A stretch of DNA of 32,000 bases from Fibrobacter succinogenes subsp. succinogenes S85 (GCF_000146505.1 NC_017448.1:300001-332000), one strand, 5' to 3'; shown: positions 3,550 to 29,383, counted from the stretch's first letter. Notes: a model not told the origin generated them from the letters alone. Translations and numbers: made by a program.

Positions 3550-3563
3550 TCCATACCTCTGCA

Positions 3564-5281: not shown

Positions 5282-5307
5282 CGGTCAATGAAACCAAATC
5301 TAGAAAT

Positions 5308-7677: not shown

Positions 7678-8294
7678 TTTTTCGAGACCTTATAATTCAG
7701 AAAATCCAAAGTCGTTGGAATTTTTTCGCCATCCGTAATAACAATCCTATCCACGTTTTTGCAGGCATCCATCACGACGTTATCCACGAGCATGCGGATC
7801 ATCGCCTCACGCGGAATCAGTCCGATTCTAAAACCGCAAGACTTTTTTTCGTAAAAGACCTTGAAGTTTTTCTCCAATTCCGTGACTTTTCCAGAAAACA
7901 GCGATTGGATATTATTCGAGACTTCTGCAAAGATAGGATTTTCCTTTGGTAGCAATGTGCGAATTTGTCCATTAGTATCGCGTTCGACAATGCCCGCGTT
8001 ATGGATAGCGAGCTCAGAGAATACGGGCTTTTGCGTTTTCCAGATGATTCCCGCCTTTTTAGAAATGCGGAACGTTCCCGTCGAAACAAATTCGCGATTG
8101 AGCTTTTGGATAGACTTGGTCTGCTTAAAATCGCCCGAAGCCACCTGATAATCCATGACTTTTGCCAAGGATTTTTCAAGTTCCGGCCTGTTTTTAGCAC
8201 TCAACGGGCGTTCAAAGACATCCGCCATTGATGAACCAATGCCAAGCAAAACTGTCAAAAGCAAAACGCCAATATTTCGACAGGACATACGCAT
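7674..8294 (-). CDS. LolA-like outer-membrane lipoprotein carrier protein (ApeL-like), secreted
   Basis: Signal peptide MRMSCRNIGVLLLTVLLGIGSSMA when started at ATG 8294. The longer ORF (to 8342) would overlap the thioesterase gene. The GDFKQTKSIQKLNREFVSTGTFRISKKAGIIWKTQKP pattern fits LolA-like proteins. Confidence 0.65.
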   Translation of the reverse strand: MRMSCRNIGVLLLTVLLGIGSSMADVFERPLSAKNRPELEKSLAKVMDYQVASGDFKQTKSIQKLNREFVSTGTFRISKKAGIIWKTQKPVFSELAIHNAGIVERDTNGQIRTLLPKENPIFAEVSNNIQSLFSGKVTELEKNFKVFYEKKSCGFRIGLIPREAMIRMLVDNVVMDACKNVDRIVITDGEKIPTTLDFLNYKVSKK

Positions 8295-8295
8295 T

Positions 8296-8733
8296 TTACA
8301 CCACCTTATCGTTTGCCAAGAACGCTCTGACCTTGTCCACAAAGCAAGTCGGGCAAGCCCAAAGCGAATCTTTCGTTTTCATATCCACCGCCATCTGGGT
8401 ACTTTCTGCTTTTGTGAGCACCGCACCCGTTTCGGCATCCATAAACTTGTACGACAGTTTCATGCAGACTTCGTATTCCACAAGTGTCACCTCGGCACGA
8501 ATCCTCTGCATAAAAATCATCGGACGGATATATTTAATATGCAAATCTACGACGGGCCAGATGTAACCGCTACGCGTCATTTCGTTGTAATCATACCCAA
8601 TTTTACGTAAAAGTGCGCAACGGGCGACTTCCATGAACTTTACATAATTGCCATGCCATGCGACTTGCATAGAATCGACATCGTAAAATTCAACTTGGAA
8701 TTCGATCGTTTCCTTAATTTTTTTAACTGCCAT
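8296..8733 (-). CDS. 4HBT/YbgC-type acyl-CoA/ACP thioesterase (ApeK-like)
   Basis: 145 aa. FQVEFYDVDSMQVAWHGNYVKFME matches the hotdog thioesterase N-terminal motif, including the catalytic Asp. Confidence 0.8.
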   Translation of the reverse strand: MAVKKIKETIEFQVEFYDVDSMQVAWHGNYVKFMEVARCALLRKIGYDYNEMTRSGYIWPVVDLHIKYIRPMIFMQRIRAEVTLVEYEVCMKLSYKFMDAETGAVLTKAESTQMAVDMKTKDSLWACPTCFVDKVRAFLANDKVV

Positions 8734-8749
8734 GCGAATTTAGGTCCTT

Positions 8750-10276
8750 TTATACAGCGTAAAATTTCTGGCGAATCAGCTCCAGCGTATTGCGCAAATC
8801 CTGTTCCAATTGACGGTCACATTCAAGCGGAGCAAACTTCGAGAATACCTGATTGTAAGTCTCTTGAAGATTCTTGAGGCGGTCTTCCGAAATTTCATTG
8901 CGTTCCAAGCGTATGCGAAGTGCCTGAGCCGAAGCCAGAAGCGTTGCCGCTGCCACCTGTTCCGAAAGCTCCAAGACGCGGATGCAGTCGCGGGCCGCAA
9001 TCGTACCCATGCTGACCTTGTCTTGGTTGTGGCATTCCGTCGAACGGCTGAACACGCTCATCGGCATTGTCAAATGCAAAGCTTCAGCCGTCCATGCAGA
9101 AACGCCTATCTGCACCGCCTTAAAGCCATGATTGATATCGTAATCGCCCTTGCTCCCCGCAAGATTCGGTGGCAAGTTACGGTTGAACTTGATATCGACA
9201 ATCATCGCCAGCTGACGGTCCAAAAGGTCCGCAATGTTTGCAACCATGTTCTTGAGCGTATCCATCGCAAGGCAAATATGCCCGCCATAGAAATGCCCAC
9301 CGTGGAAAATATTCTTTGTGAACGGATCGACAATCGGATTGTCATTAGCGCTGTTGAGTTCAATTTCAATCAATTGGCGCAAGAACGCGCTAGAATCATA
9401 GAAAAGTCCAATCACATGCGGAGCGCAACGCAGAGAATACGGATCCTGGATTTTCTCGGGAACCACATTCTTCGCCACATCGAGATTCAAGGCTTCACGA
9501 ATTTTCTTTGCAGCCAAGCCAAGTCCCGGATGCGGTTTTGCTTCGAACAAGCGTTCATAATAGTGATACGCATTGCCCTTCATTGCAACCGTAATCATCG
9601 CTGTAATTCGGCAAGCGAGGTCAGAAAGGTATTCTGCACGGGAATAAGCCATGCAAGCGACCGCATTCATCGCCGCCGTGCCGTTCATAATGGCAATTGC
9701 TTCTTTCGGGCGAAACTTGTGCGGAGTAATTCCCAATTCCTTCATCACGTCCAAAGAAGAACGACGTTCGCCCTTGTACATCACATTGCGTTCACCAATC
9801 ACGGCACCTGCCAAATACGAAAGCGGAGTCAAGTCGCCACTTGCGCCCACGGAACCTTCCTGCGGAATGAGCGGTAAAATATCGTTCTGTAAAAACTGCG
9901 TAATGATTTTCAAAAGTGCATAGCTCACACCAGAGAAACCTTGCGCAAGCGTATTCAAGCGTACCGCCATAATCGCGCGGGTCGTCTCGGCATCAAAGTA
10001 ATCACCGAGGCCGCATCCATGGAAACGCGTCAAGTTAATCGGGAGCTGGCTGTAATGTTCCGGCGGCAACACCTGCGTGCAGGAATCACCATATCCCGTT
10101 GTCACGCCATAAATGCCACCATGTTCTGCAAGCGCTTCGTCCAAGAATTCTGCACCAGAATCAATCTTTCTCTGGAATTCCGCAGAACTATCAAGTTCCA
10201 CTGCGACTTGCTTTTTCGCAATCGCAACAACATCTTCAATCGAAAGCTTACCACTTCCAATAACGACGGTTTTCAT
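8750..10276 (-). CDS. Aromatic amino-acid ammonia-lyase (HAL/TAL/PAL family, MIO-dependent)
   Basis: 508 aa. MIO-forming triad in GSVGASGDLTPLS (Ala145-Ser146-Gly147, nt 9836-9844), YGVTTGYG, NSANDNP. The selectivity-switch pair reads Phe85-His86 (nt 10019-10024). Confidence 0.9.
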   Translation of the reverse strand: MKTVVIGSGKLSIEDVVAIAKKQVAVELDSSAEFQRKIDSGAEFLDEALAEHGGIYGVTTGYGDSCTQVLPPEHYSQLPINLTRFHGCGLGDYFDAETTRAIMAVRLNTLAQGFSGVSYALLKIITQFLQNDILPLIPQEGSVGASGDLTPLSYLAGAVIGERNVMYKGERRSSLDVMKELGITPHKFRPKEAIAIMNGTAAMNAVACMAYSRAEYLSDLACRITAMITVAMKGNAYHYYERLFEAKPHPGLGLAAKKIREALNLDVAKNVVPEKIQDPYSLRCAPHVIGLFYDSSAFLRQLIEIELNSANDNPIVDPFTKNIFHGGHFYGGHICLAMDTLKNMVANIADLLDRQLAMIVDIKFNRNLPPNLAGSKGDYDINHGFKAVQIGVSAWTAEALHLTMPMSVFSRSTECHNQDKVSMGTIAARDCIRVLELSEQVAAATLLASAQALRIRLERNEISEDRLKNLQETYNQVFSKFAPLECDRQLEQDLRNTLELIRQKFYAV

Positions 10277-10290
10277 TTAATTGTTCTCCA

Positions 10291-11244
10291 CTATTTTTCT
10301 AACCTGTCCCAAAAATTGTAGAAATTGTACCACTGATAAGGATGTTCTTTACACAGCCTTTCCAACAACTCAGTGTATTCCTGCAAAAGCATTTTCAAGC
10401 GCATAGGGCGTTCCTTGCGCGAGCATTCCAGATTCGTCTTGGCACGCACCACATGCATTTCGTAAGGCGAACGGATATTAAAGTCATGTTTGCGAATCGC
10501 AAATACAAAATAAACGGGAGCATTCAAAATGCCCGCTAGCGAAAAAGCACCTTCTGGGAAGTTCGCCGTTTCACCTAGGAACATCGTTTCAAGCACGCGA
10601 CTGCGCGTATGAGCAGATGTACGATCTCCCGCAATCACCACAAGATTTCCATCTGCAATTTTCTCTTTCATCCAAATGGCAGAATCCACATCAATGGAAT
10701 TAGCATCAATTACATTTTCCATCAATTCCGGATTCAGTTCACGCAAAAGCGCATTGAACTTTTTGGAGCCCGACAAATCGACTACTGGGAAAACCTGAAA
10801 CTTTCGCGATGTATGGAACTCGCCATATTCAGTGAGCGAACGGAGCATTTCCATATTGCCTAGATGCGAACAAAGCAGAAACGCGCCCTGCCCTTGATTC
10901 ATTTGCGAAACAAGCATCTGCAAATCGTCATTTTGCGATTCGATCTGATTGAGCTTGATAGCGCCCTTCCAGCCTCGTAACTTTTCAACCATCGAAAGCG
11001 CAAACGAAAGGATGTGCTTATACGTTCCAAACGCACCCACGTATACGCCCAATTTACGCAAGTGTTCCAAATAAATTTTAGAACGCGCACGAACAGGTGC
11101 AGCCCCAAGCCAGAAAAAGAAGCATATTACAGCCGTACACAATTCAACAAGAAACAACGGCAAATGGCACACGATCCAAAGCATAAAACGGAAATGCCAA
11201 ACACTTCCGCCCACTTCTTCAATTTCGGACCAATGCTTGCTCAT
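10291..11244 (-). CDS. LpxL/HtrB-family (lysophospholipid/lipid A-type) acyltransferase
   Basis: 317 aa. N-terminal TM segment and the family motif CSHLGNMEM (HxxxxE/D). Sits inside the APE cluster. Confidence 0.7.
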   Translation of the reverse strand: MSKHWSEIEEVGGSVWHFRFMLWIVCHLPLFLVELCTAVICFFFWLGAAPVRARSKIYLEHLRKLGVYVGAFGTYKHILSFALSMVEKLRGWKGAIKLNQIESQNDDLQMLVSQMNQGQGAFLLCSHLGNMEMLRSLTEYGEFHTSRKFQVFPVVDLSGSKKFNALLRELNPELMENVIDANSIDVDSAIWMKEKIADGNLVVIAGDRTSAHTRSRVLETMFLGETANFPEGAFSLAGILNAPVYFVFAIRKHDFNIRSPYEMHVVRAKTNLECSRKERPMRLKMLLQEYTELLERLCKEHPYQWYNFYNFWDRLEK

Positions 11245-11246
11245 AA

Positions 11247-12017
11247 CTATTTCTTTTTAAATAAGCGGCGAGACAAAAGCAAAGGAAGCCTAAAAAACAT
11301 GCCTATGCAAAGCATCGTATGCGTCATCGAAATCACAACGTTGTCATGGAACATTCTAAAGTTCGAAACGCCATCTTTCGGGTAATTCACCTTCACCGGG
11401 AAAAAGCGCATCTGCACGCCCGCCCACGCAAGACGAACAATAATTTCAATATCAACGCCCATGCGGTTGTTGTGCAAACGTTTCATCACCGGCCAAGACG
11501 TTTTGAGCGGATAAATTCTAAAGCCGCACATGGCATCAGGAATTTTGAGCGAAAGCGTTTCAATCGCCACCCAGAAATTCGTAATCTTACGACCCTGTTC
11601 ACGAGCCTTGGGTACGGATTCATCGTATTCCGGGTAACCGCAAATCAAGTCTTCAGGATGTTCCTTCGTCTCGTTTATAAAAAACGGAATCGCCTTCATA
11701 TCGTGTTGGCCATCGGCATCGACCTGCAAAGCGTGCGTGAATCCCGCCACAATAGCAGCATCCATGCCGGAACGCATCGCAGCGCCTTTGCCGAGATTGC
11801 ATTTATGCGTCACAAGTTCGACATTTGCAAATTCTCTTGCAATTTCAAAAAGAACTTGGTGACCTTCGGGCGTGTTTCCATCGTCAATGAGAATCACAGG
11901 AATGTTCAAATCGACAAGGGATTTCACGACATGGCGCGATGCATTTTCGTGGCGATAAACAGGCACAATGGCGCAAACTTTTACCGCATTATCCACGATT
12001 TTCGCCCTCGCCAGCAT
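11247..12017 (-). CDS. Family 2 glycosyltransferase (ApeJ-like)
   Basis: AIVPVYRHE, IDDGNTPEG and the DxD motif QVDADGQH. C-terminal TM helix. ATG 12017 (GTG at 12020 also possible). The start overlaps the 3' end of the upstream gene by ~29 nt. Confidence 0.85.
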   Translation of the reverse strand: MLARAKIVDNAVKVCAIVPVYRHENASRHVVKSLVDLNIPVILIDDGNTPEGHQVLFEIAREFANVELVTHKCNLGKGAAMRSGMDAAIVAGFTHALQVDADGQHDMKAIPFFINETKEHPEDLICGYPEYDESVPKAREQGRKITNFWVAIETLSLKIPDAMCGFRIYPLKTSWPVMKRLHNNRMGVDIEIIVRLAWAGVQMRFFPVKVNYPKDGVSNFRMFHDNVVISMTHTMLCIGMFFRLPLLLSRRLFKKK

Positions 12018-14355
12018 CACCTGTTGAAGTGTTCATTACCAACGAACCATTTGAATACGAAGTTTCACCATCTTCGCTAGTGTACGCAAACGTCACCTTA
12101 CCCGCATCCGCATCGTACGTGATTTTCACCATTACAGGAACGTCCGGCAAAATGGGATTTGCAAAACGCGTACGGTTCATCTTGGAAAGTTCCTTAGGCA
12201 CTTCCAAGAAGTTCCGCGCCAAGCGCAAAACCATATCCACCTGCACCACTGCAGGCAACAGCTTAAATTCCGGGAAATGACCATCGTAGTAATCACTCGT
12301 CGCCGGGAACAAAAGCTTCGCGGTCAAAGCGCCCGGTTCACGGCGGAACTTGAGAATCTTGAAATTCGGACTTTCGGCAAGGCCAAACAGCGCCTGGATA
12401 TCGCGCATGCGAATCTTGCCTTCCGTATTCTGCGGGAGTTCTTCAAGATAGCGCCACTTCTTCGGTGAAACCGTATTCTCAATAAACTTGAGCAAGTAAT
12501 CGTGGAAATAATTATTGATCGCAAGTTTGGGCGACCCCGCAAACTTTGTGCGTCCAGCTTCGTTCAGCACAATCGCAGCGGCTAGGTATTGGCGTTTACC
12601 CACCATCGGCACCACGCGCACATCTTGTACCAACCCCGTCTGCTTCAAGCGCATTTCCACTTCCGGGAGCGAGATGCGTTTTTCCTCAATCTTCACAATC
12701 GAATCCGAACGGCCCTTGAGCAAGAATCGGCCGTCGTCATAAAGGTCCACCAAGTCACCTGTCGTAAAGCCTTCGGGTTCTAGAATATAACTCGACTTGA
12801 TGTTCAGGCAACCATTTTCGGCAACACTCATCTTGCAAACTTCAAACGGAGTCCACACCGGTCCATTCTTGGATTGCCTATACGCAATGCCACCCGTCTC
12901 GGTACTGCCGTAAATTTCCATCGTCCAAAATCCCGTCAGTTCACAGGCCTTGCGAGCCACCTCTTCGGGCAACGGACCTCCGGACGAATAAATAATCGGA
13001 GTACATTTAAAGTCAATCGGCTTATCCGTTTCTGCAGATAAACGTTTCAAGAACGCAGGGCTCGAAGCGATTACCGCAGCTTCCCCTGCAATATTTGCTA
13101 GTTCTGTCGGAAAATCAATACGGTGCCTGCGGAACGGAAGCCCAGTCGCAATCGGCAAAAGCGCCGTAAACAACAAACCGTAAATATGGTGGTGGTTGAC
13201 AGTGCTATAAACCTTGCGGTTTACCCAGTCATTTCCAAAGACTTTCACAAGTTCAAATAGTTCATTTTCAAATTGCAAAAAGCGCTTGTACACAGCCTTC
13301 GGTTCACCCGTCGTACCCGACGTGTACATCACCATCTCGGCTTTGGACTTGTCGAACTTGCCGAACTTGATTTCGCGAGCTTTGTCACCATCCGAACAAT
13401 GCGCATTTTCATTACCAAGCACATCCTGGATCAAAGTCGCTGGCATTTCGTTCGCGCCAGCAACACTACCAGCAAACGGTTCATCTGTCAAGAATCCATA
13501 TTCAGGCTTCTTGATTTCCTTGATAAACGCTTCTTGGCGATTCGCAGTCACAAGCGCCTTGCGCCCGCTCTGGAGCATCGCTAGCAAAGAAACCGTAAAG
13601 TAATACGAATCTTCGCAATGCAAAATCCACGGCACATTTTCACGAGCTTCCAGGTAATAACGCACCTTGGAAACATCGCTTACAAAATCGCCCCAAGTCT
13701 TACCTTCGGCGACAAACGCACCATCCGGGCGAGAATCACGTTCCAAATCACAGACAGGAACATACGACTGCATTTTACTCTGCACCATTTTTCGAACCAA
13801 ATATTCCACAATGAAAAATAAACCAATTAAAATGTAAGAAATAAGTCCATTGTACAACGACCAAATCTTATCGGAACCCACGAAAACGGTAAGCGCAGAA
13901 ACCGATCCATTCACGACAAAAAAGAGGCACCATGCAAAAGTCACCTTATTGCAATAACGCTCCACCGCCTTAAACGAAGGCGATGTATTCAACGACTTGT
14001 TCCCCAGGCACGCCATTCGGAACGCAAAGCTCGGCGGTCGCCATAGCGTAAATCCGAAAAACGCAAGCAAGCTCAAGTTCACGAGCACCGGATAAAACTT
14101 GACAAATAAAATGTTATTTGCAAAGAATGCGACAAGTGCGCACACCAAAATCAGCGCAACGATAGCCCCCGTACGCCCACGATCCGCCTTTGACTTGCTA
14201 CGCGTAAAATTCAAGAAGTGGTAAAAGCCAAGCGCCAAAAGCATCAAGCTCATGCGCCGTGGCGAAAGTCCCCAGTACCTAATTCCGCAATAGACAAGGA
14301 CCGGATACAAAACAGAAATCGCGGTAAAGAAAATCTTTCCCGCAACCTGTTTCAT
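11989..14355 (-). CDS. Tri-domain fusion: polytopic membrane domain + AMP-dependent synthetase/ligase + hotdog dehydratase (ApeG-ApeH-ApeI-like)
   Basis: 788 aa. Residues 1-190 are hydrophobic helices. The adenylation motifs are MYTSGTTGEPKAV, YGSTETGG, TGDLV and GRSDSIVKIEEKRISL. Residues ~659-775 form a FabA/Z-like hotdog domain (YYDGHFPEFKLLPAVVQVDM). Confidence 0.85.
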   Translation of the reverse strand: MKQVAGKIFFTAISVLYPVLVYCGIRYWGLSPRRMSLMLLALGFYHFLNFTRSKSKADRGRTGAIVALILVCALVAFFANNILFVKFYPVLVNLSLLAFFGFTLWRPPSFAFRMACLGNKSLNTSPSFKAVERYCNKVTFAWCLFFVVNGSVSALTVFVGSDKIWSLYNGLISYILIGLFFIVEYLVRKMVQSKMQSYVPVCDLERDSRPDGAFVAEGKTWGDFVSDVSKVRYYLEARENVPWILHCEDSYYFTVSLLAMLQSGRKALVTANRQEAFIKEIKKPEYGFLTDEPFAGSVAGANEMPATLIQDVLGNENAHCSDGDKAREIKFGKFDKSKAEMVMYTSGTTGEPKAVYKRFLQFENELFELVKVFGNDWVNRKVYSTVNHHHIYGLLFTALLPIATGLPFRRHRIDFPTELANIAGEAAVIASSPAFLKRLSAETDKPIDFKCTPIIYSSGGPLPEEVARKACELTGFWTMEIYGSTETGGIAYRQSKNGPVWTPFEVCKMSVAENGCLNIKSSYILEPEGFTTGDLVDLYDDGRFLLKGRSDSIVKIEEKRISLPEVEMRLKQTGLVQDVRVVPMVGKRQYLAAAIVLNEAGRTKFAGSPKLAINNYFHDYLLKFIENTVSPKKWRYLEELPQNTEGKIRMRDIQALFGLAESPNFKILKFRREPGALTAKLLFPATSDYYDGHFPEFKLLPAVVQVDMVLRLARNFLEVPKELSKMNRTRFANPILPDVPVMVKITYDADAGKVTFAYTSEDGETSYSNGSLVMNTSTGDAGEGENRG

Positions 14356-14612
14356 TACTTAGATTCCGAATTTTGAACAAGATTATAGATACCATCGACC
14401 ACGTTCTCAAGAGTACGCATTTTTTTGAATGCTTCCGGGTCGATGTTTCTCGGCAAAAAAGACTTGAGCTTCACAATCAAGTCCACAGCATCAATGCTAT
14501 CCAATTCCAAGTCTTCGTAAAGGCGAGCCTCTGGAACGATTCGATTTTCTTCCAAATCAAAATCTTCAATAAGGGCAGCTTTAATCTTTTCGAAAATGAC
14601 CTGTTTGTCCAT
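14355..14612 (-). CDS. Acyl carrier protein
   Basis: 85 aa. Phosphopantetheine-attachment motif LELDSIDAVDL. The stop overlaps the downstream start (TAATG). Confidence 0.9.
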   Translation of the reverse strand: MDKQVIFEKIKAALIEDFDLEENRIVPEARLYEDLELDSIDAVDLIVKLKSFLPRNIDPEAFKKMRTLENVVDGIYNLVQNSESK

Positions 14613-14615
14613 GGA

Positions 14616-14891
14616 TTAGCCCTTAGAATTTGCAGAAATGTAGGCAGCAAGCGCATTCACCGAAGCAAAATGCTGTTTGGTTTCTTCCTTAACCGTCGAG
14701 AAAGATACACCAAAATTTTCCTTGATGGCAATGCCCAATTCCAAAGCGTCGATTGAATCCAGACCAAGCCCTTCGCCGGCAGCATTCTTACCAAAAATCG
14801 GAGCAGAATCCACAATATCGGCTGGGGTAATATCTTCCAGTTCCAAGGACTCAATCATGACTTCTTTAATACGGGTATTCAAATCGGACAT
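14616..14891 (-). CDS. Acyl carrier protein
   Basis: LGLDSIDALEL motif. I prefer ATG 14891 (MSDLNTRIKE...). The ORF is also open to 14909. Confidence 0.9.
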   Translation of the reverse strand: MSDLNTRIKEVMIESLELEDITPADIVDSAPIFGKNAAGEGLGLDSIDALELGIAIKENFGVSFSTVKEETKQHFASVNALAAYISANSKG

Positions 14892-14986
14892 ATATTTTAG
14901 CGACCTCAATCAAGGTTTACATTTTCTTGGATAGGCAATATAGAAAAATAATTTTATATTAAGGGAACCTTATTTTTAGAGACACC
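14892..14986. promoter_or_regulatory. Divergent promoter region between the ACP-led minus-strand operon and the methyltransferase-led plus-strand operon
   Basis: 95-nt AT-rich gap between divergently oriented first genes. Contains AATATAGAAAAA (14937-14948), which recurs at 30413-30424. No -10/-35 assignment attempted. Confidence 0.3.
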
Positions 14987-16090
14987 ATGTTCGATTTTTA
15001 TAAAAACGATTCCATCGACGCTGTAAACGCCAAGTTTGAAGCTCAAAAAATTGCATTTGCCCCCCTCAGTTTCCAAGCGGCCCGCGCCCTCAGAGACATG
15101 GGCATTTTAGAAGAAATCAGCAAATCGCGCAAAAAAGGCATTACCATTTCGGAAATTGCTCAGAAGCTAGACATTTCGCTTTACGGAGTAGGCGTTCTTG
15201 TAGAAATGGGACTTGGCATGGGAGCCATCAAGCTCCACAAGGATTCTAGCGAAGATGACCTGCGCCTCACGCTCGGAAAAATTGGATTTTTCCTCTTAAA
15301 CGACGAAATGACGCAAGTGAACATGGACTTTTCGCAGGACATCTGCTACCGCGGTGCCGAAAATCTCGAGCAGTCCATCCGCGAAGGGAAGCCATCAGGA
15401 CTCCCCCACCTCGGTCCGTGGAAAACCGTCTACGAAGGGCTCTCCCAGCTGACCGACCAACAGAAAAAGAGCTGGTTCGGATTTGACCATTTTTACTCCG
15501 ACTTGGCATTCCCCGAAGCACTCCCGATTGTATTCGAAAAGCTTACAGAACTGAAGCAGCCAAGACTTTTTGACATTGGCGGAAACACTGCAAAATGGGC
15601 CATTGCCTGCTGCAAATACAACGCAGACATACAAGTTTCCATCATCGACCTTCCGGGGCAAACCGCAGTCGCCGAAAAGAATGCCGCACAAGCAGGCTTT
15701 AAAGACCGCATTGACACCATAGCCTGCAACGTTCTCGACGACACGACCGAATTCCCGCAAGGCGCAAACGCTGTCTGGATGAGCCAATTCCTGGATTGCT
15801 TCTCGCTCAAGCAAATCACAAAAATCTTGACAAAGATCCACAAGGCAGCCACTCCAGAAACAGACGTCTACGTTCTCGAACCGCTTTGGGACAAGCAGCG
15901 TTTTGAAGCCGCCGCATACTCGCTCCAGGCCACGTCGCTTTACTTTACCTGCATCGCAAACGGCAACAGCAAAATGTACCGCTACGAAGAGCTTAAAAAA
16001 GCCATCGAAATTGCAGGTTTCGAGCTCAAGGAAGCGCACCACGGCGTAGGCCCGAACGCCTATTCCCTCCTCCGCTTCCGCAAAAAATAA
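14987..16090 (+). CDS. SAM-dependent O-methyltransferase (family-2 type with N-terminal dimerisation/winged-helix domain; ApeB-like)
   Basis: 367 aa. Motif I LFDIGGNTAKWA followed by IIDLPGQ, which fits the (V/I)D(V/I)GGG ... DLP pattern of class I O-MTs. Confidence 0.8.
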   Translation: MFDFYKNDSIDAVNAKFEAQKIAFAPLSFQAARALRDMGILEEISKSRKKGITISEIAQKLDISLYGVGVLVEMGLGMGAIKLHKDSSEDDLRLTLGKIGFFLLNDEMTQVNMDFSQDICYRGAENLEQSIREGKPSGLPHLGPWKTVYEGLSQLTDQQKKSWFGFDHFYSDLAFPEALPIVFEKLTELKQPRLFDIGGNTAKWAIACCKYNADIQVSIIDLPGQTAVAEKNAAQAGFKDRIDTIACNVLDDTTEFPQGANAVWMSQFLDCFSLKQITKILTKIHKAATPETDVYVLEPLWDKQRFEAAAYSLQATSLYFTCIANGNSKMYRYEELKKAIEIAGFELKEAHHGVGPNAYSLLRFRKK

Positions 16091-16104
16091 GCCCGGCGTA
16101 AATC

Positions 16105-16779
16105 ATGCAAAAAGTTTTCATCGAAAAAATGGCAAGCTTTGTGCCGACAGAAGCGCACCCCAAGCCAGATGTTTCGTTCGTACCTATGCTGACGCGCCGT
16201 CGCCTCAGCTACATTTCGCGCATGGTGGTTCTCGTGAGCGATCAAGTTTCTCGCGACAACGACGGCAACAAACTCACGCCCTGCAAGGTGACATTCGCAT
16301 CGCAGTTCGGAGAAATCAGCCAGCAACTGAAAATTTCGCAGACGCTTCTCGACACAGGCATGGTCTCGCCCGCGCATTTTAGCCTTTCGGTTTTTAACGC
16401 CTCCATTGCAAATGCGTCAATTCTCGAAACGAACACCGCAGGCTACTCCGCCGTATTCTCCGGGAAGGACGCTTTTACCACAGGCCTCACGGATTGCATA
16501 GCCGCCCTTGAAAGTGAAAGCACAGACACGCGTACATTCATTTTCGCAGACGAACTCATCCCCGAGACCTACGCTCCCGTTGCAGGCGTCCCCTACCCGA
16601 ACGCCGTCTGTGCCATCGCACTCCGCCTCACGACCGACGAATCCAAGGCCGATCCGACATTTAAAAACGTTGATATCGCAAGCCAACTGGCACAGCTCAA
16701 GATGTTGCGCAACAACTTCGATACCGCCGCAGAACAAGCCATCGCTTTCCTCTGCGCCATTGACATGCAAAAGACTTAA
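16105..16779 (+). CDS. KS N-terminal-domain-only protein, chain-length-factor-like (ApeC-like)
   Basis: 224 aa. SPAHFSLSVFNASIANASI resembles the KS N-domain, but the position of the active-site Cys reads AVFSGKDAF (no Cys). The C-terminal His-His half is missing. Confidence 0.6.
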   Translation: MQKVFIEKMASFVPTEAHPKPDVSFVPMLTRRRLSYISRMVVLVSDQVSRDNDGNKLTPCKVTFASQFGEISQQLKISQTLLDTGMVSPAHFSLSVFNASIANASILETNTAGYSAVFSGKDAFTTGLTDCIAALESESTDTRTFIFADELIPETYAPVAGVPYPNAVCAIALRLTTDESKADPTFKNVDIASQLAQLKMLRNNFDTAAEQAIAFLCAIDMQKT

Positions 16780-16781
16780 TA

Positions 16782-17552
16782 ATGGCAAAAATCCGCTACA
16801 TACGCCGTATTTTAGCAAAACTTTTCTGCTTTGCTTTTTTCGGCATTTGTAGCCTAATTCTCGCAATACTTCTTTTCCCCATCATCCATATTATCACGGG
16901 TTTTAACGAAAGAAGATTCAAGATTTTTGTCCGCAAGTTCAACCACCAGTATTTTAAAATTTTCGTCAAAATAGCTGAACTTTTAGGAGCAATTCGACTC
17001 ACCGTCGAAAACAGGGATTCCCTCAAGAACCTCCGTTCCAAAGTTGTCATTGCGAATCACCCCTCATTATTCGATGTTGTCATTCTTTTTTCGCTTATTC
17101 CTAATGCAAATTGCATTGTAAAAGGCGAGCTCATTCAAAATAAATTTATTTCGCTTATCATCAGGAATTTGTACATTCCAAACAACATCCCTTTTGAAGA
17201 GCAACTTGAAATGGCGAAAGCCTCCATGGACGAAGGGAATAACCTTATCATTTTCCCTGAAGGGACCCGTAGCAAGCCTGGCGAGCCATGGGAATTCAAG
17301 AAAGGAGCAGCCCGTTTTGCACTTTATGCACAAAGTGATGTTGTTCCTATTTTCTTTGGTGGAAATGAAAAAATCGGGCTCCGTAAGCATGACAAGTTGT
17401 TACAATTTCACCCGACAGAACGTTATATATACAACTTGAAAATACTCAAGCCCATTCCGGTAAAAGAATACGAGAGCATGCCACTCACTAAAAGTGCAAC
17501 CAAGCTCACACACAAAATGAAGGAAATTCTTGAAAAAGAATTGCCAAATTAA
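16782..17552 (+). CDS. 1-acyl-sn-glycerol-3-phosphate acyltransferase family protein (PlsC-like; ApeD-like)
   Basis: 256 aa. N-terminal TM, HX4D motif NHPSLFD and FPEGTRS motif. Confidence 0.85.
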   Translation: MAKIRYIRRILAKLFCFAFFGICSLILAILLFPIIHIITGFNERRFKIFVRKFNHQYFKIFVKIAELLGAIRLTVENRDSLKNLRSKVVIANHPSLFDVVILFSLIPNANCIVKGELIQNKFISLIIRNLYIPNNIPFEEQLEMAKASMDEGNNLIIFPEGTRSKPGEPWEFKKGAARFALYAQSDVVPIFFGGNEKIGLRKHDKLLQFHPTERYIYNLKILKPIPVKEYESMPLTKSATKLTHKMKEILEKELPN

Positions 17553-22171: not shown

Positions 22172-22837
22172 TTACTTTTTGTCTTGCGGAACCAACCGAT
22201 CCACGATTCTGAACAAATCGTTGTAAATTTCGAGGAAGTCTTCAATCCAAATCGGGTCGTGTTCACCAACTATGTGGAACGTTTCTTCGAGCGTATGGAG
22301 CGAGTTGTAAAGGCCCACGGTCGAACCGGCCGGCTGGACGTATCCGCCACTGTACGCAGACGATGCGACAATGCGGGCGCGGTAACTGCGGCGGAGTCGT
22401 GCAATCAAGGCACTGCGGAGCGCCAAGAGTTCGTCGTGCGCGACAAGGTATTCGCCTTTCTGGATCCAGCCATCGACAATGTTCAAACGGCGATTGATGG
22501 AATCGCGTTCCGTAGACGGCACGAGCATTTTCTTTGCATTGAGCGTTGTACGGATGCGCTTCACAATGTTGTTCAGCAAGTCTGCATTCCAGAAAATCAT
22601 CGGCGGGCGCGCATCGCCCTTGTTCGTCTCGAGAGCGGGCTTGTGGGCTTGAATCCAGCGGTCCAACTTCTGCGCGACTAGTTTTGCCTCGGGATAACGG
22701 TCCACCGCCACATATTCCTGGGCGCGCGTGTAAAGCGTATCCGCATAAACCATCCGCCAATGCGAAAGCTTACCAGTCTTGCGAATGGCATCGATACTAG
22801 CCTTGATTTCGGACAGTTTTTCGGTAAGCTCTTCCAT
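22172..22837 (-). CDS. Hypothetical cytoplasmic protein, helical-looking, translationally coupled to the MotB-like gene
   Basis: 221 aa. No signal peptide, TM or catalytic motif recognised. The ATG overlaps the upstream stop (TAATG). Confidence 0.6.
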   Translation of the reverse strand: MEELTEKLSEIKASIDAIRKTGKLSHWRMVYADTLYTRAQEYVAVDRYPEAKLVAQKLDRWIQAHKPALETNKGDARPPMIFWNADLLNNIVKRIRTTLNAKKMLVPSTERDSINRRLNIVDGWIQKGEYLVAHDELLALRSALIARLRRSYRARIVASSAYSGGYVQPAGSTVGLYNSLHTLEETFHIVGEHDPIWIEDFLEIYNDLFRIVDRLVPQDKK

Positions 22838-23487
22838 TAGGGCGTTACCTCAGCTGTTTTGTTGGACTGGAGCGGGGTCACACCGATTTCCACGCGACGG
22901 TTCAAACGGCGATGTTCTTCGCTATCGTTCGGGTATTTCGGGCGGTGTTCACCAAAGCCTGCAGCAAAGAGTCTATCGGGCGGAAAGCCCATTTTCACGA
23001 GCATCTTGACCACGTTCACGGCACGTTCCGTAGAAAGGTTCCAGTTCGTATAAGATGTCGAGCCGCTAAACGGAATGTCGTCCGTAAAGCCACTCACCAT
23101 GATCACGTCCGTAGAATCAAGAGCTTCCAAAAGACCCTTGCTGATACCGCGAATCACGCCCTCGCCTTCCTTGGTGAGGTTAGCTCCGTTGATCGGGAAA
23201 AGGAAACTCGCCTGGATCTGGATTTTACCGTCTTCGAGCGCGATAAGGCCAGCTTCGATGGAGGTCTGCAAGCTCTTGGACAAAAGCGCATTGCGTTCTG
23301 CCGCAATCTTACGCATCTGTTCCTGGCAGCTGAGCACTTCTTCTTCGGTACGCGTGAGGTCTTCCGCTTTTTGTTCCTTGAGGGTCGCCATCGCCACAAA
23401 CGCAAGGATAAAGAGCGAAACGAGGGCAACGCCCAAGTCCGTGTACGCCATCCATGGATTGCTATTTTCGTCTCTATTGCGACGCAT
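22837..23487 (-). CDS. MotB/ZorB-like stator subunit with OmpA-like peptidoglycan-binding domain
   Basis: 216 aa. PWMAYTD(17)LGVALVSLFILAF is the MotB-type TM helix with the conserved Asp. C-terminal OmpA-like motifs are VSGFTDD, NWNLSTERA, GFGEHRP and NRRVEI. Confidence 0.85.
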   Translation of the reverse strand: MRRNRDENSNPWMAYTDLGVALVSLFILAFVAMATLKEQKAEDLTRTEEEVLSCQEQMRKIAAERNALLSKSLQTSIEAGLIALEDGKIQIQASFLFPINGANLTKEGEGVIRGISKGLLEALDSTDVIMVSGFTDDIPFSGSTSYTNWNLSTERAVNVVKMLVKMGFPPDRLFAAGFGEHRPKYPNDSEEHRRLNRRVEIGVTPLQSNKTAEVTP

Positions 23488-23489
23488 GA

Positions 23490-25388
23490 TTAACCTTCAG
23501 CTTTAGGTTGAGCGGGAATTGCAGAACGCTGTGTCTGTTCGAGCACTTCAAGCAAGATTTCCTGAGTCTTGACCGCATTTTCCATGAGCACTTCGCTTGC
23601 GCGTTCATGGAAGGCTTCGAGAGACTGGTTGAGGTGTTCGACAAAGTTATCTTCTTCTTCGTATTCTGCGGTATCGCCAGAGAGCTTTTCGAGAATCGTT
23701 TCAAGGCCGCTACGCAGCATTTCGAGATTGGCGCTGAGTTCGGACTGGTTCACGCGCATAAGTTCTGCGGTTTCCACGATGTTTCCGCCAAGAGCATCCG
23801 TGGCTTCCTTTTCCTTGACCACGCGATTGTCGATGCTTTCGGTGAGCGCCTTTTGAGCTTCGAGAAGCACGCTTGACGTTTCGGAAAGCTTCTGGAATGC
23901 GCCGAGAATGTCGGAAGAAAGGGCGCCGAGCTTTTCGGAAACGTTCTGGGAGAGTTCTGCAGAACCGGCCTGAGCGTTTTCGGCAACTTGGAGAGCCACG
24001 TTCTTGAGCGTTTCGAGACCTTCGCGCTGGGAATCCACATTGGCAGTCGTCTTGTCTTCGAGACGCTGCATAAAGTCAGCCCACTGTTCGCTAGACTGCT
24101 TGACCTGTTCAGCAACGGAATCACCGATGCTCTTAGAAGCTTCGTCCATAGCATCCTTAGTAAGGTATGCCACATCCATCGTGCCCTTCGCCACATCCTG
24201 AAGGCCAGCCTTAACATCGGATGCAACGCCATCAAGGCCTGCTTTAACTTCAGAGGCGACCTTAGAAAGTGCGGTTTCCACATTGCCAGAAACTCCATCA
24301 AGCGAAGACTTAACGCCTGAAGAAAGACCTTCGAGGCTAGCATTCAAGGCAACAGAAATACCATTGAGTTTATCGTCGAGCTTCGACGGGATAGCCTCAA
24401 CAGACTTGGAGAGCGCACCGATATTTTCATTGATCGGGCTGAAAGCGTTCGTCACAGAAGCGCCAACAAGTTCGCCAAACTTCTGCGTTGATTCGTTCAT
24501 GTTAGCCACTGCACCAGCGAGAGAATCATTGACCGTCTTGATAGAAGAAGTCATTTCCGTAGAAACCTTCTGGACAGATTCCACAACATCCTGGTTCAGC
24601 TTCGAAGTCATGGCAGAGAGTTCCTCACCCACCATCGAGACAACACCAGCCAAACCATCCTTCACGGAAGATGCAATCACGGACAAATTCTTTTCAACAG
24701 ATTCAAAGAGGCGTTCAAGTTCGTTCTTGTCTTCTTCAATCACGCCTTCTGCGCTTTCATCTTCTTGCATGTCGAGCGTGAAGGTGTCGAGGTGCGCCAT
24801 GAATTCATCGCGCTTGGAGCTGAGCACCGTGCGGCTTGCGCTCAAAATCAAGGCGGCAAACAAACCACAAAGGCTAGTACCGAAAATGCCCTTCATGTTC
24901 TGGAAAAGCACCTGAATCGTATCAAGCGTACCCTGCGTCGTGGAATTGTCAATCGCGCCACCGGCGGTTGCCACAGACTGCATAAGGCCGAAGAACGTAC
25001 CCATAAGGCCAAGGAGAATGACCGTAGAACCCACGCTGCGGTTGAGCGGAATCGAAGAACCCGACGAAAGCACGTCAAAGGCAATCGTGGAATCCAGGCG
25101 GATGTTCTTTTGCAACAGACGCTTTGCAAGTTCAATTCTCTTCGCGACAACGCCCGTTCCCGGTTCCGGATAAGCGTTCCCTTTTTCGCAAGAATCGATA
25201 ACTTCGTCTTCGGCGATAATCTGCTTCATCTTGCGGATGGCAGAAAATTGCTCCACCAAGTAGACAGCCATGATGGCGATCATGATGATCCAGCCAAATG
25301 CCGGGGCGCCAAAGTAAAGAGCGCCTGCGATAAGGGCTATAAAACCCACCACCGTCAAAATAAGAATCGTATTGAATGCATTTTTCAT
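23490..25388 (-). CDS. MotA/TolQ/ExbB-family proton-channel protein with ~440-aa C-terminal helical repeat tail (ZorA-like architecture)
   Basis: 632 aa. Hydrophobic helices at about aa 5-26, 30-46, 119-140 and 165-188. Channel signature LLGLMGTFFGLMQS. Residues 190-632 are hydrophilic and helical-looking, with 11-residue periodicity. Confidence 0.8.
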   Translation of the reverse strand: MKNAFNTILILTVVGFIALIAGALYFGAPAFGWIIMIAIMAVYLVEQFSAIRKMKQIIAEDEVIDSCEKGNAYPEPGTGVVAKRIELAKRLLQKNIRLDSTIAFDVLSSGSSIPLNRSVGSTVILLGLMGTFFGLMQSVATAGGAIDNSTTQGTLDTIQVLFQNMKGIFGTSLCGLFAALILSASRTVLSSKRDEFMAHLDTFTLDMQEDESAEGVIEEDKNELERLFESVEKNLSVIASSVKDGLAGVVSMVGEELSAMTSKLNQDVVESVQKVSTEMTSSIKTVNDSLAGAVANMNESTQKFGELVGASVTNAFSPINENIGALSKSVEAIPSKLDDKLNGISVALNASLEGLSSGVKSSLDGVSGNVETALSKVASEVKAGLDGVASDVKAGLQDVAKGTMDVAYLTKDAMDEASKSIGDSVAEQVKQSSEQWADFMQRLEDKTTANVDSQREGLETLKNVALQVAENAQAGSAELSQNVSEKLGALSSDILGAFQKLSETSSVLLEAQKALTESIDNRVVKEKEATDALGGNIVETAELMRVNQSELSANLEMLRSGLETILEKLSGDTAEYEEEDNFVEHLNQSLEAFHERASEVLMENAVKTQEILLEVLEQTQRSAIPAQPKAEG

Positions 25389-25395
25389 TTTTTAC

Positions 25396-26313
25396 CTACA
25401 CATTCTGCGCTTGATAAGGAGCGACTGTTTCAAACAAGTTCAACTGACCGCGAGAAAACCCGCGAAGGAAAAGAGACCACTTGCTCTGGTACCATTCGAT
25501 AACCTGAGTCGTAAGCCCCTGAGCGTAATCACAAAAATCATCCGTAAACGCAAGGAAGCAGTTTTCGTATGCGTAATGCGGGTTCCAGTAGCGCCCCACA
25601 TTGCGGGCGCAAGACATTGCGGACGAATAGTAACGGACTGGACCTTTAGAGGCGAACGCCGCCGCAAAACGTTTTTTTGCAAGCGAGTTCAAGGACGTAC
25701 GGAGCGAAACCACCATAGCGTTTTCTTTTTCGCGCAGCGAGGCTTCGAGGCATGGCAAAAGCTTCGACACCGGGTCTACCGCACTTTCAGAAAGCCAGTA
25801 CTTGCAGAGCTTTTCTTGCAACTGCATCACACGGCCATGCATACGCACAAACAACGGTTCGGCATCGCTTACGAGCAAGTGGATCGTTGCCGAATAAAAG
25901 TTGTTGATGTCCTGCTTGTTGTTTTTTACGGTGAGTGCCCAACCCTTTTCTTCGTCATGGACCAAGAAATCACCGCCTTCAAGCAAGAGCCGCAAGACTT
26001 CATCGGTCGAAAAACGCTGGATCCACTTCGCACGGAACTCGCTATAAAGTTTTTCGCAATCCTTGAAAATCTGCGGGAAGCCCGATTCGCAAAGTTTCCA
26101 GGCAGACTCGCTATACGAGATGAGCTCGGAACTGCCGACGTTTGCATCCGGATTGTTGAGCATGGCGTCGAGATGTTCAAAGAGCGCAATCGACCACGTG
26201 ACCATCATGGACTGAGAAAGCGTCGCGACAATAGCCGAGCGATTCGGACGCACGGCCAAGCGTACGCTTGCCCCTGTCATCTTACGTATGGCTCTACGGA
26301 AAGCTTCTTCCAC
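25396..26313 (-). CDS. Hypothetical cytoplasmic protein
   Basis: 305 aa. GTG 26313 has AGAGG 5 nt upstream (alternative ATG at 26280). Ordinary amino-acid composition, in contrast to the R/H/F-rich antisense ORF on the plus strand. No motif recognised. Confidence 0.6.
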   Translation of the reverse strand: MEEAFRRAIRKMTGASVRLAVRPNRSAIVATLSQSMMVTWSIALFEHLDAMLNNPDANVGSSELISYSESAWKLCESGFPQIFKDCEKLYSEFRAKWIQRFSTDEVLRLLLEGGDFLVHDEEKGWALTVKNNKQDINNFYSATIHLLVSDAEPLFVRMHGRVMQLQEKLCKYWLSESAVDPVSKLLPCLEASLREKENAMVVSLRTSLNSLAKKRFAAAFASKGPVRYYSSAMSCARNVGRYWNPHYAYENCFLAFTDDFCDYAQGLTTQVIEWYQSKWSLFLRGFSRGQLNLFETVAPYQAQNV

Positions 26314-26322
26314 GACTACCTC

Positions 26323-27039
26323 TTAGAAACGCGCTTCAATGTTGTGCCACACGTTGCGGCGGACGCGCTTTTTACTCGTCTTCAAATCAGCGGCTTCACT
26401 GCGGATATCGGATTCCTGGTTATTGCGAATCAAGTCCGTATCGCCATCAAGCTTGCCTGCGGTTTCGAGATAAAGTCCATAGACGTTTTCGGAGATGCTT
26501 GTGCCGTTCGAAACGACACGACCAGCCCTCACAGACAAGGCATAACGGTTGTGAGCAAACGTACAACGAGCAAGCGTCACATTGGGGCTTTCATCAACCC
26601 AAAGGCCATAATAGTTATTGAAGAAATTGACGTTTTCAAGAGTACCGCTAGAACGGAAAATCGTATTGCGGAACGCATTCTCGACGGTCAAGTTCTTTAT
26701 TTCAAACGGTTGTGCGCTAGACATGATGTGGAAACCATTCCAGTTTGCCACAGAATCGGCTCCGCTAAAGACAACGGGTTTATCGTTTGTACCCGCAATT
26801 TTTACCGAGCCCTGGATCATGAGTTTTGCAAACTCGCCCATCAAAACGGTCACGCCCGGTTCAATGACGAGCGTATCCGTAGCGCCGACAACCACGCTCT
26901 GTTCGAGCACGTAAGGGCTATCCTTTTCTTGCAAAAAGACCTTGTTGTTTTCGGCCACCGGGAACGGCATTCCAGAAGCGACAGCCACGCTAGCAACAGT
27001 CGCCACAGCAACGAGAGAGGAACAGATTAAATTTTTCAT
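26323..27039 (-). CDS. Secreted right-handed parallel beta-helix (PbH1) repeat protein
   Basis: Signal peptide MKNLICSSLVAVATVASVAVASG. PbH1-like repeats NLTVENAFRNTIF / LENVNFFNNYYGLWV / VTLARCTFAHNRYALSV / TSISENVYGLYLE. ATGA overlap with the upstream gene. Confidence 0.7.
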   Translation of the reverse strand: MKNLICSSLVAVATVASVAVASGMPFPVAENNKVFLQEKDSPYVLEQSVVVGATDTLVIEPGVTVLMGEFAKLMIQGSVKIAGTNDKPVVFSGADSVANWNGFHIMSSAQPFEIKNLTVENAFRNTIFRSSGTLENVNFFNNYYGLWVDESPNVTLARCTFAHNRYALSVRAGRVVSNGTSISENVYGLYLETAGKLDGDTDLIRNNQESDIRSEAADLKTSKKRVRRNVWHNIEARF

Positions 27040-27875
27040 TGAACGTTCCTCAAGGTGATTTTCTGATTGACGTTCATGCTCGGAAGCGTATCGCCTGCGA
27101 CAAGGTCGCGAACATCTATAACAGCCACGAGATTCATTTCAGCAGATGATATAATTCCATGAGTGACATCAAAGAGAACCATGCCATCGCCCACGACATA
27201 GTCGCTACTCTTCAGCTGTAAATTCGAAGTTGTATCCGGGAGTTCAAGGTATTTCACGCCCATGTGTATTTTAGCCATGCGCACGCCATCCTGGAGGAAA
27301 ACGTCTTGCAGCGTGAATGTCTTATAAACGGTCGTGGAACTATTGCCCTTGCCGAAAATCGGCATCTGGCGTTCCCAGGATTCGCCAAGTTTGACCGACT
27401 TTTCGGGGAGAAGCGGCTGGGCCTTGAGGAAAAGCGGAATGAGGTTCAGATCATCTTCGGAAGGCATTTCGACCGCATTTTCGATAGTCGGGTCCGTGAT
27501 GATGCCATCGTGATCAAGCTTGAACTGGAAATTCTGAATGGATAAATACTTTTCAATGTTGCGGAATTCATCAACGGAGCGCTTGTCGCTTGTGTAATCG
27601 ACGGAATCGATTTTCATTTCAAAGCGGCCCGAGCCATCGTCATATGACATGAGAAGGCTCATCGTGCTGCGTACATTCACGTGGGTACGCATGGATTCGG
27701 GTTCGTTGATGGAATCGCCGGGGATGCTTGCATTCAGCGTTGATTCAAGAACGAACGTCTGCGGAGAAACGGTCTTCGTGTTAAAAGAAAGATGGATTTC
27801 GTTCCGTTCACAGGAACAAAGTGTCAATAACGCAATAGAGAGCGCCGAGAAAGCGCTAAACTTGGTAAAATTCAT
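27036..27875 (-). CDS. Lipoprotein, beta-rich, unknown function
   Basis: 279 aa. Signal/lipobox SALSIALLTLCSC. No family recognised. Confidence 0.65.
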   Translation of the reverse strand: MNFTKFSAFSALSIALLTLCSCERNEIHLSFNTKTVSPQTFVLESTLNASIPGDSINEPESMRTHVNVRSTMSLLMSYDDGSGRFEMKIDSVDYTSDKRSVDEFRNIEKYLSIQNFQFKLDHDGIITDPTIENAVEMPSEDDLNLIPLFLKAQPLLPEKSVKLGESWERQMPIFGKGNSSTTVYKTFTLQDVFLQDGVRMAKIHMGVKYLELPDTTSNLQLKSSDYVVGDGMVLFDVTHGIISSAEMNLVAVIDVRDLVAGDTLPSMNVNQKITLRNVQ

Positions 27876-28539: not shown

Positions 28540-28842
28540 CTATTCCTTTTTATTGCCGCTTTTACGACGATAAAGCATATACTCAACATAACCTCGAGGA
28601 AACATAAAGACAAGCCAAAGCCCCAATGATATATAGATTCTTCCCAAAACACCACAAGAATTTCTAAAAATATAAAAAACACAACCCAAAATTATCGGCA
28701 ATGCAACCAAACGAATTTTCCATATTTTCGGTTCATTGTATGGATGTTCATTGCATCCCATCAAAATTGGAATTACCAGCCCCGCTACAAAAAAGCAAAC
28801 AAAAAAAATTTCATCAAAATGTAATGTTATAAAATCAATCAT
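28540..28842 (-). CDS. Small integral membrane protein (about 3 TM)
   Basis: 100 aa, three hydrophobic segments and a basic C-terminus. AT-rich gene (about 28-37% GC counted on individual 60-nt lines). Confidence 0.5.
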   Translation of the reverse strand: MIDFITLHFDEIFFVCFFVAGLVIPILMGCNEHPYNEPKIWKIRLVALPIILGCVFYIFRNSCGVLGRIYISLGLWLVFMFPRGYVEYMLYRRKSGNKKE

Positions 28843-28852
28843 ATTTACATCA

Positions 28853-29383
28853 CTACCAATTAGACTTATTTGAATTGCTTATTTCTTCAAGATTTTTCAA
28901 TTTTTGCTCGTATTCGGCTTCCTGTTTCGAGGTATCTTTTCCTTCGCGTTTTTCACGCCCCACTTTCATGGCCATGTCGAAAAGATCGTCAATATTTTCT
29001 TCGACTTCACTGTGATAATTCGTGTTATCCCAAATGTTAGTGTCACGACGAAAAAAAGCGGGATCAATCATAAAGAATGGGAGCAAAATGAACCAAGCGA
29101 AAAAAGTAAGCCCAAGCCACGTGAATACGACATCTAAAGTAAACTCATGATACGCTTTTTCGCCACAAAATAACAAGCAAAAGAAAGCTAGGCAAATGGC
29201 AGGCAACATAAGCACATAGACCTTCCACTTGAGATTTTCCCTTTCGGAAAATTTCTTTTTAGAAAGCCATACAGGGACTCCAGTTATTATTAGCATAAAT
29301 AACAAACAGGGCCATATACTCCCCAACACCTCTAATGGAGAGTCAATCAACTCCTGCAAAAATTTTATTCGGCGTTCCCACAT
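28853..29383 (-). CDS. Membrane protein (about 3 TM) with a charged C-terminal tail
   Basis: 176 aa. The ATG overlaps the stop of the radical SAM gene (TAATG). AT-rich. Confidence 0.55.
   Translation of the reverse strand: MWERRIKFLQELIDSPLEVLGSIWPCLLFMLIITGVPVWLSKKKFSERENLKWKVYVLMLPAICLAFFCLLFCGEKAYHEFTLDVVFTWLGLTFFAWFILLPFFMIDPAFFRRDTNIWDNTNYHSEVEENIDDLFDMAMKVGREKREGKDTSKQEAEYEQKLKNLEEISNSNKSNW

Follow-up and report, generated by a model that had tools for sequence, protein, structure and literature searches.

Zorya type III is described as a zorAB pair with a DUF3348 gene on one side and a DUF2894 gene on the other (Payne et al. 2021, PMC8565338; PMC11890865), and its sole functional test is that of a Stenotrophomonas system, which reduced plaquing in E. 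coli (PMC8565338). It is the least understood Zorya type, and the fold, activity and binding site of its two partner proteins are not known. EcZorAB, from a Zorya system of type I that also contains ZorC and ZorD, is a ZorA5B2 complex with a long tail, the tip of which is needed for function (Hu et al. 2024, PMC11946911). Here we analyse a four-gene cassette in a window of 32,000 nucleotides (nt) from Fibrobacter succinogenes subsp. succinogenes S85 (GCF_000146505.1, NC_017448.1:300001-332000), the window being the whole stretch of DNA studied. The cassette encodes, in order, proteins of 305, 632, 216 and 221 amino acids (aa), and we read it, with a probability of roughly 0.6, as a type III Zorya cassette (DUF3348-like, zorA, zorB, DUF2894-like) that is specific to Fibrobacterota and has diverged strongly. 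The published names of the type III partners are not consistent, because ZorF is the DUF3348 protein and ZorG the DUF2894 protein in PMC8565338, while the entries PDLC00652-00658 of PADLOC-DB v2 are reversed (ZorG3 for DUF3348, ZorF3 for DUF2894); moreover the gene order, which PMC11946911 states to be zorFABG, is printed in this 2024 Nature paper both as zorFABG and as zorGABF. We therefore prefer the domain names, and F-like and G-like are used here only as labels for the families of the upstream (305-aa) and downstream (221-aa) partners.

The cassette has four genes on one strand, in the same order as in Zorya type III and with similar sizes: in annotated type III examples (Variovorax CP063167, Azoarcus pAZKH) the DUF3348 protein has 248-256 aa, the DUF802/ZorA protein 736-885, the OmpA/ZorB protein 212-224 and the DUF2894 protein 235. 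The first two genes are separated by 7 nt and the second and third by 2 nt, while the third and fourth overlap by 1 nt. Each gene has more than 100 conserved homologue clusters and the four co-occur in Fibrobacteraceae loci, and for these reasons we consider them real; promoter and terminator scans remained at chance level, and the limits of the operon are not delimited by them. An earlier interpretation of this DNA (hereafter the sequence-only reading) had proposed the four open reading frames (ORFs) with their coordinates, transmembrane (TM) segments, tail, Asp17 and OmpA-like domain, all of which were confirmed by ORF, hydropathy and Pfam checks. It had also taken the locus for a candidate undescribed system, and this second claim is not supported: the order is that of the published Zorya type III and the sizes are similar, and the partners had been compared only with ZorC, ZorD and ZorE.

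The curated models tested came from NCBIfam, Pfam-A and PADLOC-DB v2.0.0. When one genome per species was scanned with a ZorB alignment, 20 loci from Fibrobacteraceae and 60 canonical type III ones (Proteobacteria and Polyangiales) were recovered, and the canonical profiles of 59 DUF3348 and 63 DUF2894 proteins were built from them. The Fibrobacterota side was deepened by an exhaustive HMMER search with the family of the 305-aa protein over 1.84 billion representatives, the contigs of which gave diverged downstream partners, and a metagenome scan was made with a subgroup alignment.

Concerning the stator, the 216-aa protein has one TM segment (residues 12-38), which contains Asp17, and a Pfam OmpA domain (3e-16). 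The ZorB3 model of PADLOC (PDLC00651) matches it at 6.1e-42 and covers residues 6-212 of 216, as compared with 3e-22 for ZorB1 and 1e-6 for ZorB2. It is 34-39% identical to canonical type III ZorB, with values of 34-36% for the proteobacterial proteins, and in the alignment D17, W12 and the string NRRVE are invariant between Fibrobacter and canonical proteins. A tblastn search against plasmids found proteins about 34% identical on Ralstonia, Caballeronia, Variovorax and Azoarcus replicons, and the PDB matches are the peptidoglycan-binding domains of MotB/PomB (6e-18). The 632-aa protein shows hydrophobic segments at about residues 7-25, 32-50, 118-141 and 167-185, with LLGLMGTFFGLMQS at residues 125-138, inside the third, and GIFGTS in the last helix of the head. 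Its matches to Pfam MotA_ExbB (0.014) and NCBIfam TolQ (0.064) are weak, and the NCBIfam MotB, MotD and TolQ matches to the stator pair are all far below their cut-offs; the best PADLOC match is ZorA3, with the ZorA1 model scoring lower, and hhalign aligned residues 17-209 to 56 canonical type III ZorA proteins with Prob 97.8% and E 7.5e-13. No PDB match was found with the ZorA sequence. The ZorAB-type stator proposed earlier is thus supported by PADLOC (ZorB3 6e-42, ZorA3 1e-12), and the channel core, the TM Asp and the domain that binds peptidoglycan mark the 632-aa and 216-aa proteins as homologous to ZorA and ZorB of type III.

The tail of about 437 residues that follows the ZorA head contains 4 Pro and is rich in E, S, L, A and V. 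Its hydropathy has a single dominant period of 3.65 residues (11/3), with a power of 244, whereas 200 shuffles averaged 53 and did not exceed 107; no signal is found at 3.5 residues, the 3.65-residue period recurs in all 110-residue segments of the tail, and the autocorrelation of residue identity has its peaks at 11 and 22. This periodicity bears out the long helical cytoplasmic tail of the sequence-only reading and would fit one long amphipathic helix in a hendecad-type bundle, with a length of about 64 nm at 1.5 Å per residue. In the Fibrobacteraceae loci ZorA is 491-643 aa long, and sequences that are very closely related differ by indels of exactly 11 residues (621, 632 and 643 aa); the change in length falls entirely in the variable middle of the tail, while the last ~230 residues are nearly invariant.

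It is useful to compare this pair with the better known stators. As in type I Zorya of E. coli, there is a peptidoglycan-anchored MotAB-like unit with an Asp in the ZorB TM segment and a very long cytoplasmic ZorA tail; however, EcZorA has three TM helices and the ZorA of the window four hydrophobic segments, and, unlike in types I and II, no ZorC, ZorD, ZorE, nuclease or helicase was found among the proteins scanned. Helicase, HNH and nuclease domains are absent from the cassette and from most of the larger ORFs of the window, as far as these were scanned. When six cassette and neighbour proteins were run against PADLOC, only the ZorA-like and ZorB-like proteins matched, plus one weak match to PDC-S06 (0.0096). 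With MotAB/PomAB, ExbBD and TolQR the pair shares the MotA/ExbB-type channel motif, the TM Asp of the B subunit and the OmpA-like peptidoglycan-binding domain, but the 430-residue tail is absent in those stators, and no flagellar, TonB or Tol-Pal partner genes are present among the window ORFs scanned, as the sequence-only reading had noted, nor in the related loci.

The two partners were more difficult to place. HMMER searches with the canonical profiles, iterated with default filters, did not reach the Fibrobacter partners, and hhalign with shallow profiles gave at first no significant result (0.53 for the upstream pair, 0.041 for the downstream pair); the signal appeared only after the profiles on both sides had been deepened. 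For the downstream partner, the G-like profile then aligned to the 63 DUF2894 proteins with Prob 71.6%, P 3.5e-5 and a score of 38.5 over 172 columns in local mode, and with Prob 84.8% and P 7e-7 in global mode, the two alignments spanning 172-188 columns, while the controls reached 17.7 (reversed decoy), 16.3 (best of 40 column shuffles) and 13.1 (DUF3348 profile). A broader and noisier G-like profile retained the C-terminal motif against DUF2894 (Prob 49%, P 1.7e-4). This motif, G-[PLx]-[LY]-N-[SN]...[SD]-P-x-[WY]-[LIV]-x-x-F, is common to both groups in a joint MAFFT alignment, with G175 invariant and N178 near-invariant. On these profile comparisons the 221-aa protein is a remote homologue of DUF2894. 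No hydrophobic segment was detected in it by hydropathy and no PDB match by sequence, and its AlphaFold2 model is weak (predicted local distance difference test, pLDDT, 66; predicted template modelling score, pTM, 0.44) and unfit for a fold search.

For the upstream partner, hhalign of the F-like profile against the 59 canonical DUF3348 proteins gave a score of 29.4 (P 0.0023) over 46 in-register N-terminal columns, in which the Fibrobacter segment ATLSQSMMVTWSIALFEHLDA is aligned to the canonical segment LSDRLSQWLGWTDAIALSTAL; the controls lay between 14.6 and 18.7 (best shuffle 14.6, reversed 15.6, DUF2894 profile 18.7). In addition, unfiltered hidden Markov model (HMM) searches gave higher cognate than non-cognate scores in all four directions, with matches in register at the N-terminus of F-like and at the C-terminus of G-like proteins, and DUF3348 proteins scored up to 16.5 bits with the F-like profile, the controls no more than 9.9. 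The link is weaker than that of the downstream partner to DUF2894; the 305-aa protein shares an N-terminal segment with the DUF3348 protein and is probably homologous to it. Three of the four proteins being homologous to those of type III Zorya and the fourth probably so, with partners that fail the curated models, we interpret the locus as a phylum-specific variant of this type. The likeness to type III also lies in a ZorB that best fits the ZorB3 model, a homologous ZorA head, a long helical ZorA tail and two small, soluble, helical partners.

The 305-aa protein has no hydrophobic or TM segment by hydropathy, and a PDB search with its sequence found no match. Its AlphaFold2 model (pLDDT 78, pTM 0.72) is a helical bundle with one beta-hairpin, and Foldseek against PDB, a fold check that goes back to the earlier interpretation, returned only generic helical bundles (best E 0.039) and no significant neighbour. 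The family comprises 60 clusters at 50% identity among the 1.84 billion proteins searched, and the best cluster that is not identical to the window protein is 88% identical. Conserved residues in the F-like family are L44, W97, R100, W173, E190, F216 and G285, and in the G-like family the G-x-x-N motif; because no conserved catalytic-type residues are found in either family, both partners are more likely to be adaptors or non-enzymatic effectors than nucleases or other enzymes. A similarity of the F-like C-terminus to DUF2894 (E 0.013) was dropped, as it vanished with a broader profile. As a separate observation, the type III DUF3348 proteins of Polyangiales are barely detected by Pfam (24.8 bits against a cut-off of 25; L033:2917-3891, L025:92-601), and, with DUF3348 proteins there at the edge of detection, divergence of the partners beyond the reach of models is not unique to Fibrobacterota.

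Several observations weigh against a type III Zorya cassette or set this one apart from the canonical ones, and a first series regards the proteins themselves. Neither the 305-aa protein (for PF11828) nor the 221-aa protein (for PF11445; E<=0.1 for Pfam and PADLOC) has a match in Pfam, PADLOC or NCBIfam, unlike the canonical proteins used as positive controls, which the curated models detected at 3.5e-84 to 2e-5 for DUF3348 and at 5e-60 to 8e-10 for DUF2894, the Polyangiales partners included; 31 diverse F-like members also gave no DUF3348 match in a Pfam scan, just scattered single matches. The upstream partner has 305 aa against about 250 in type III, and its likeness to DUF3348 is confined to ~46-80 N-terminal residues, with P ~0.002. 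The ZorA tail does not align by hhalign to canonical type III ZorA tails, and the DUF802 repeat (PF05650) gave no match in the ZorA of the window at E<=0.1, against 1.4e-31 in the Variovorax ZorA used as positive control; the Fibrobacter ZorA is also shorter (632 aa as compared with 618-1202 aa). The lineage differs as well, Fibrobacterota against Proteobacteria and Myxococcota. Finally, the Mann-Whitney p values for cognate versus non-cognate scores ignore sequence relatedness and are indicative only.

These observations could be taken to mean that the stator drives a system of a new kind, with partners unrelated to any Zorya protein and a synteny with type III that is coincidental or convergent. 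In favour of such a system one can cite the silence of the curated models on both partners, the failure of default-filter HMMER profiles of 59 and 63 canonical partners to find either, the F-like model without a PDB neighbour and the fact that hhalign ties just a part of the F-like protein to DUF3348. However, gene order, strand and sizes match zorFABG, the G-like protein aligns over its full length with DUF2894, with a score more than double that of the best decoy, the G-x-x-N...P-x-[WY] motif is invariant or nearly so in both groups, and the weak HMM signals are specific for the cognate family in four directions; we consequently regard a new kind of system as improbable. The claim that the two partners are unassignable can be maintained with respect to standard models, but not in the sense of partners foreign to Zorya, since the downstream one is a remote DUF2894 homologue and the upstream one occupies the DUF3348 position and carries the N-terminal segment. 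What is new is that the partners are unassignable with standard models, and the machine itself is not of a new kind.

We also evaluated whether the partners accompany the stator in other genomes. Wherever the sequence of a Fibrobacteraceae locus extends far enough, both were found (18/18 and 19/19), so that the proposed co-conservation of the flanking genes with the stator pair holds across loci, and every adequately sequenced locus having either partner has both, except for a lone fusion gene. In the searches run, the two families were recovered only from Fibrobacterota, from sources all named Fibrobacter or 'Fibrobacteria bacterium'. A Fibrobacter from a biogas reactor likewise has the four genes, with an F-like protein 53% identical and different downstream neighbours, and so does a more distant lineage (L095). 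Unlike in Zorya type III, stator-less derivatives with three genes exist: twelve further loci, from Fibrobacteria metagenome-assembled genomes (MAGs) and metagenomes, encode an F-like protein, a tail-tip protein and a G-like protein. The middle proteins match the tail-tip profile of the Fibrobacter ZorA (E 1e-8 to 1e-30), which recovers the middle gene in all related loci; in the twelve loci no match to the MotA-head profile was found in the middle protein and no match to ZorB, and one or two N-terminal TM segments are present in the 5/5 middle proteins examined. In the five gene tables read, the neighbours of the trio include an rluD-type pseudouridine synthase (4/5), greA (4/5) and holA, the delta-subunit gene (3/5). 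The fusion gene encodes a 419-aa protein with an F-like domain (residues 18-277, 3e-31) and the C-terminal half of a G-like protein (308-404, 2e-7).

The loss of motor head and ZorB in some lineages could suggest that the cassette is left over from a stator operon and is decaying or no longer functional. We hold this to be very improbable indeed, as the four ORFs are intact and tightly coupled, their conservation reaches 50-67% identity in the family listings and ~20% in distant members, and the counterparts of the 221-aa protein in other named Fibrobacter isolates are 97-98% identical to it. Since the motor-less trios keep the arrangement partner, tail, partner, and since one protein fuses the two partners, the partners probably work at the tip of the tail; together with the near-invariant end and variable middle of the tail, trios and fusion tie the partners to each other and to the tip, and not to the motor. 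As the trio is widespread in Fibrobacterota, in housekeeping neighbourhoods, and the motor head and ZorB are absent in most of the lineages sampled, one may tentatively suggest, although we consider it on the unlikely side, that the conserved unit is this trio with its membrane-anchored ZorA-type tail, an autonomous machine possibly unrelated to phage defence, to which the proton motor is an optional addition in Fibrobacter.

The remaining points against a type III Zorya reading regard setting and function. No phenotype is known for this lineage. In the window, nothing in the neighbourhood resembles a defence island or a mobile element; the upstream neighbourhood is conserved across the recovered Fibrobacteraceae loci, and no relative of ZorB or of the F-like protein was found in the viral contigs searched. 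Such a setting could indicate a vertically inherited Fibrobacterota module without a role in defence, in which partner, tail and partner form a membrane-anchored cytoplasmic scaffold or signalling device to which Fibrobacter adds a proton-driven stator, for envelope housekeeping, type III Zorya being related but different in role. The twelve trios without MotA head or ZorB, next to rluD-type, greA and holA genes, are in agreement with this, and so are the tadA gene that adjoins the Fibrobacter cassette in each recovered genome in which the upstream region was inspected, the lack of mobile-element or defence neighbours and of viral copies, and the restriction of both partner families to sources with Fibrobacter or Fibrobacteria names. 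On the other hand, the stator is closest to a family with measured anti-phage activity; the tail length and the F-like protein vary fast among close strains (the 88% cluster, and an 11-aa indel in the rumen MAG L005, in which ZorB is identical), as would suit a gene in an arms race; and no housekeeping partners such as Tol, TonB or gliding genes are linked to the cassette. Overall a module of this sort appears to us rather unlikely, but because of the conserved housekeeping setting and of the motor-less trios we leave a non-defence role open.

If the cassette is instead a type III Zorya, it would by analogy serve in defence. Following EcZorAB (PMC11946911), five ZorA would surround two ZorB, with ZorB anchored to peptidoglycan; proton flow via Asp17 would drive rotation after a disturbance of the envelope, for instance phage entry; and the tail of ~64 nm would convey the signal into the cytoplasm. 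The output, as suggested by the present comparison, might be a complex that both partners form at the conserved tip of the tail.

No paper was found in the literature searched that links Fibrobacter with Zorya in substance or that describes further Zorya types. With the present locus, Zorya type III would gain a new phylum, at a divergence that escapes the models tested, and surveys based on such models could undercount this lineage because they miss the partners. The Fibrobacterota offer natural dissection experiments, with motor-less trios, a partner fusion and tails in 11-residue steps among close strains, and these variants point to the tail tip as the site of action of the partners. Moreover Fibrobacter is a major cellulose degrader of the rumen, and a conserved device for sensing phages or the envelope would be of ecological interest there.

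The coordinates of the cassette, of its parts and of the related features are reported in Table 1.

Table 1. Positions of the cassette genes, of the regions of ZorA and of related features; positions refer to the window unless a locus is named
Feature	Position	Strand	Remarks
305-aa ORF, F-like partner	26313..25396	minus	GTG start
632-aa ORF, ZorA-like	25388..23490	minus	
ZorA-like head	24804..25388	minus	residues 1-195; four hydrophobic segments; MotA/ExbB/TolQ-type channel core
ZorA-like cytoplasmic tail	23490..24803	minus	residues 196-632; predicted continuous hendecad-type amphipathic helix; conserved tip ~470-625
216-aa ORF, ZorB-like anchor	23487..22837	minus	
221-aa ORF, G-like partner	22837..22172	minus	
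279-aa lipoprotein and 238-aa secreted beta-helix protein	26323..27875	minus	directly upstream of the cassette
ZorA tails with 11-residue indels	window 23490-24803; L005:4133-5998; L006:4067-5998		
Three-gene loci	L089, L091-L094, L096-L102		e.g. L092:5001-8036, L094:5001-7925
Lone F-like/G-like fusion	L090:7001-8260		between tRNA-synthetase and histidine-biosynthesis genes on a 1.6-Mb contig

The lipoprotein and beta-helix genes upstream of the cassette have a 4-nt overlap and a 9-nt gap at their junctions; the 238-aa product matches Pfam Beta_helix/NosD and the 279-aa one weakly DUF6263. ORFs matched by size and position are found at both places in those of the L005-L023 loci that reach far enough upstream; L085 lacks the beta-helix gene and L095 lacks the two genes. 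The pair could be a periplasmic accessory to the cassette or simply a conserved neighbour of it. The Fibrobacter succinogenes major paralogous domain occurs in a 437-aa protein encoded nearby, and argH, a tadA-type deaminase gene and radical SAM genes are also present in the window. Between the deaminase gene and a radical SAM/SPASM gene, at 28540-29383 and on the strand of the cassette, two unannotated membrane proteins of 100 and 176 aa are encoded, the second of which has no Pfam match. At the other end of the window, positions 175-17552 are occupied by a large aryl-polyene or flexirubin-like biosynthetic cluster, with several ketoacyl synthases, a ketoreductase, an MMPL transporter, a LolA-like protein, an aromatic amino acid ammonia-lyase, a glycosyltransferase, an AMP-binding protein with an ApeI-type dehydratase, an O-methyltransferase and acyltransferases.

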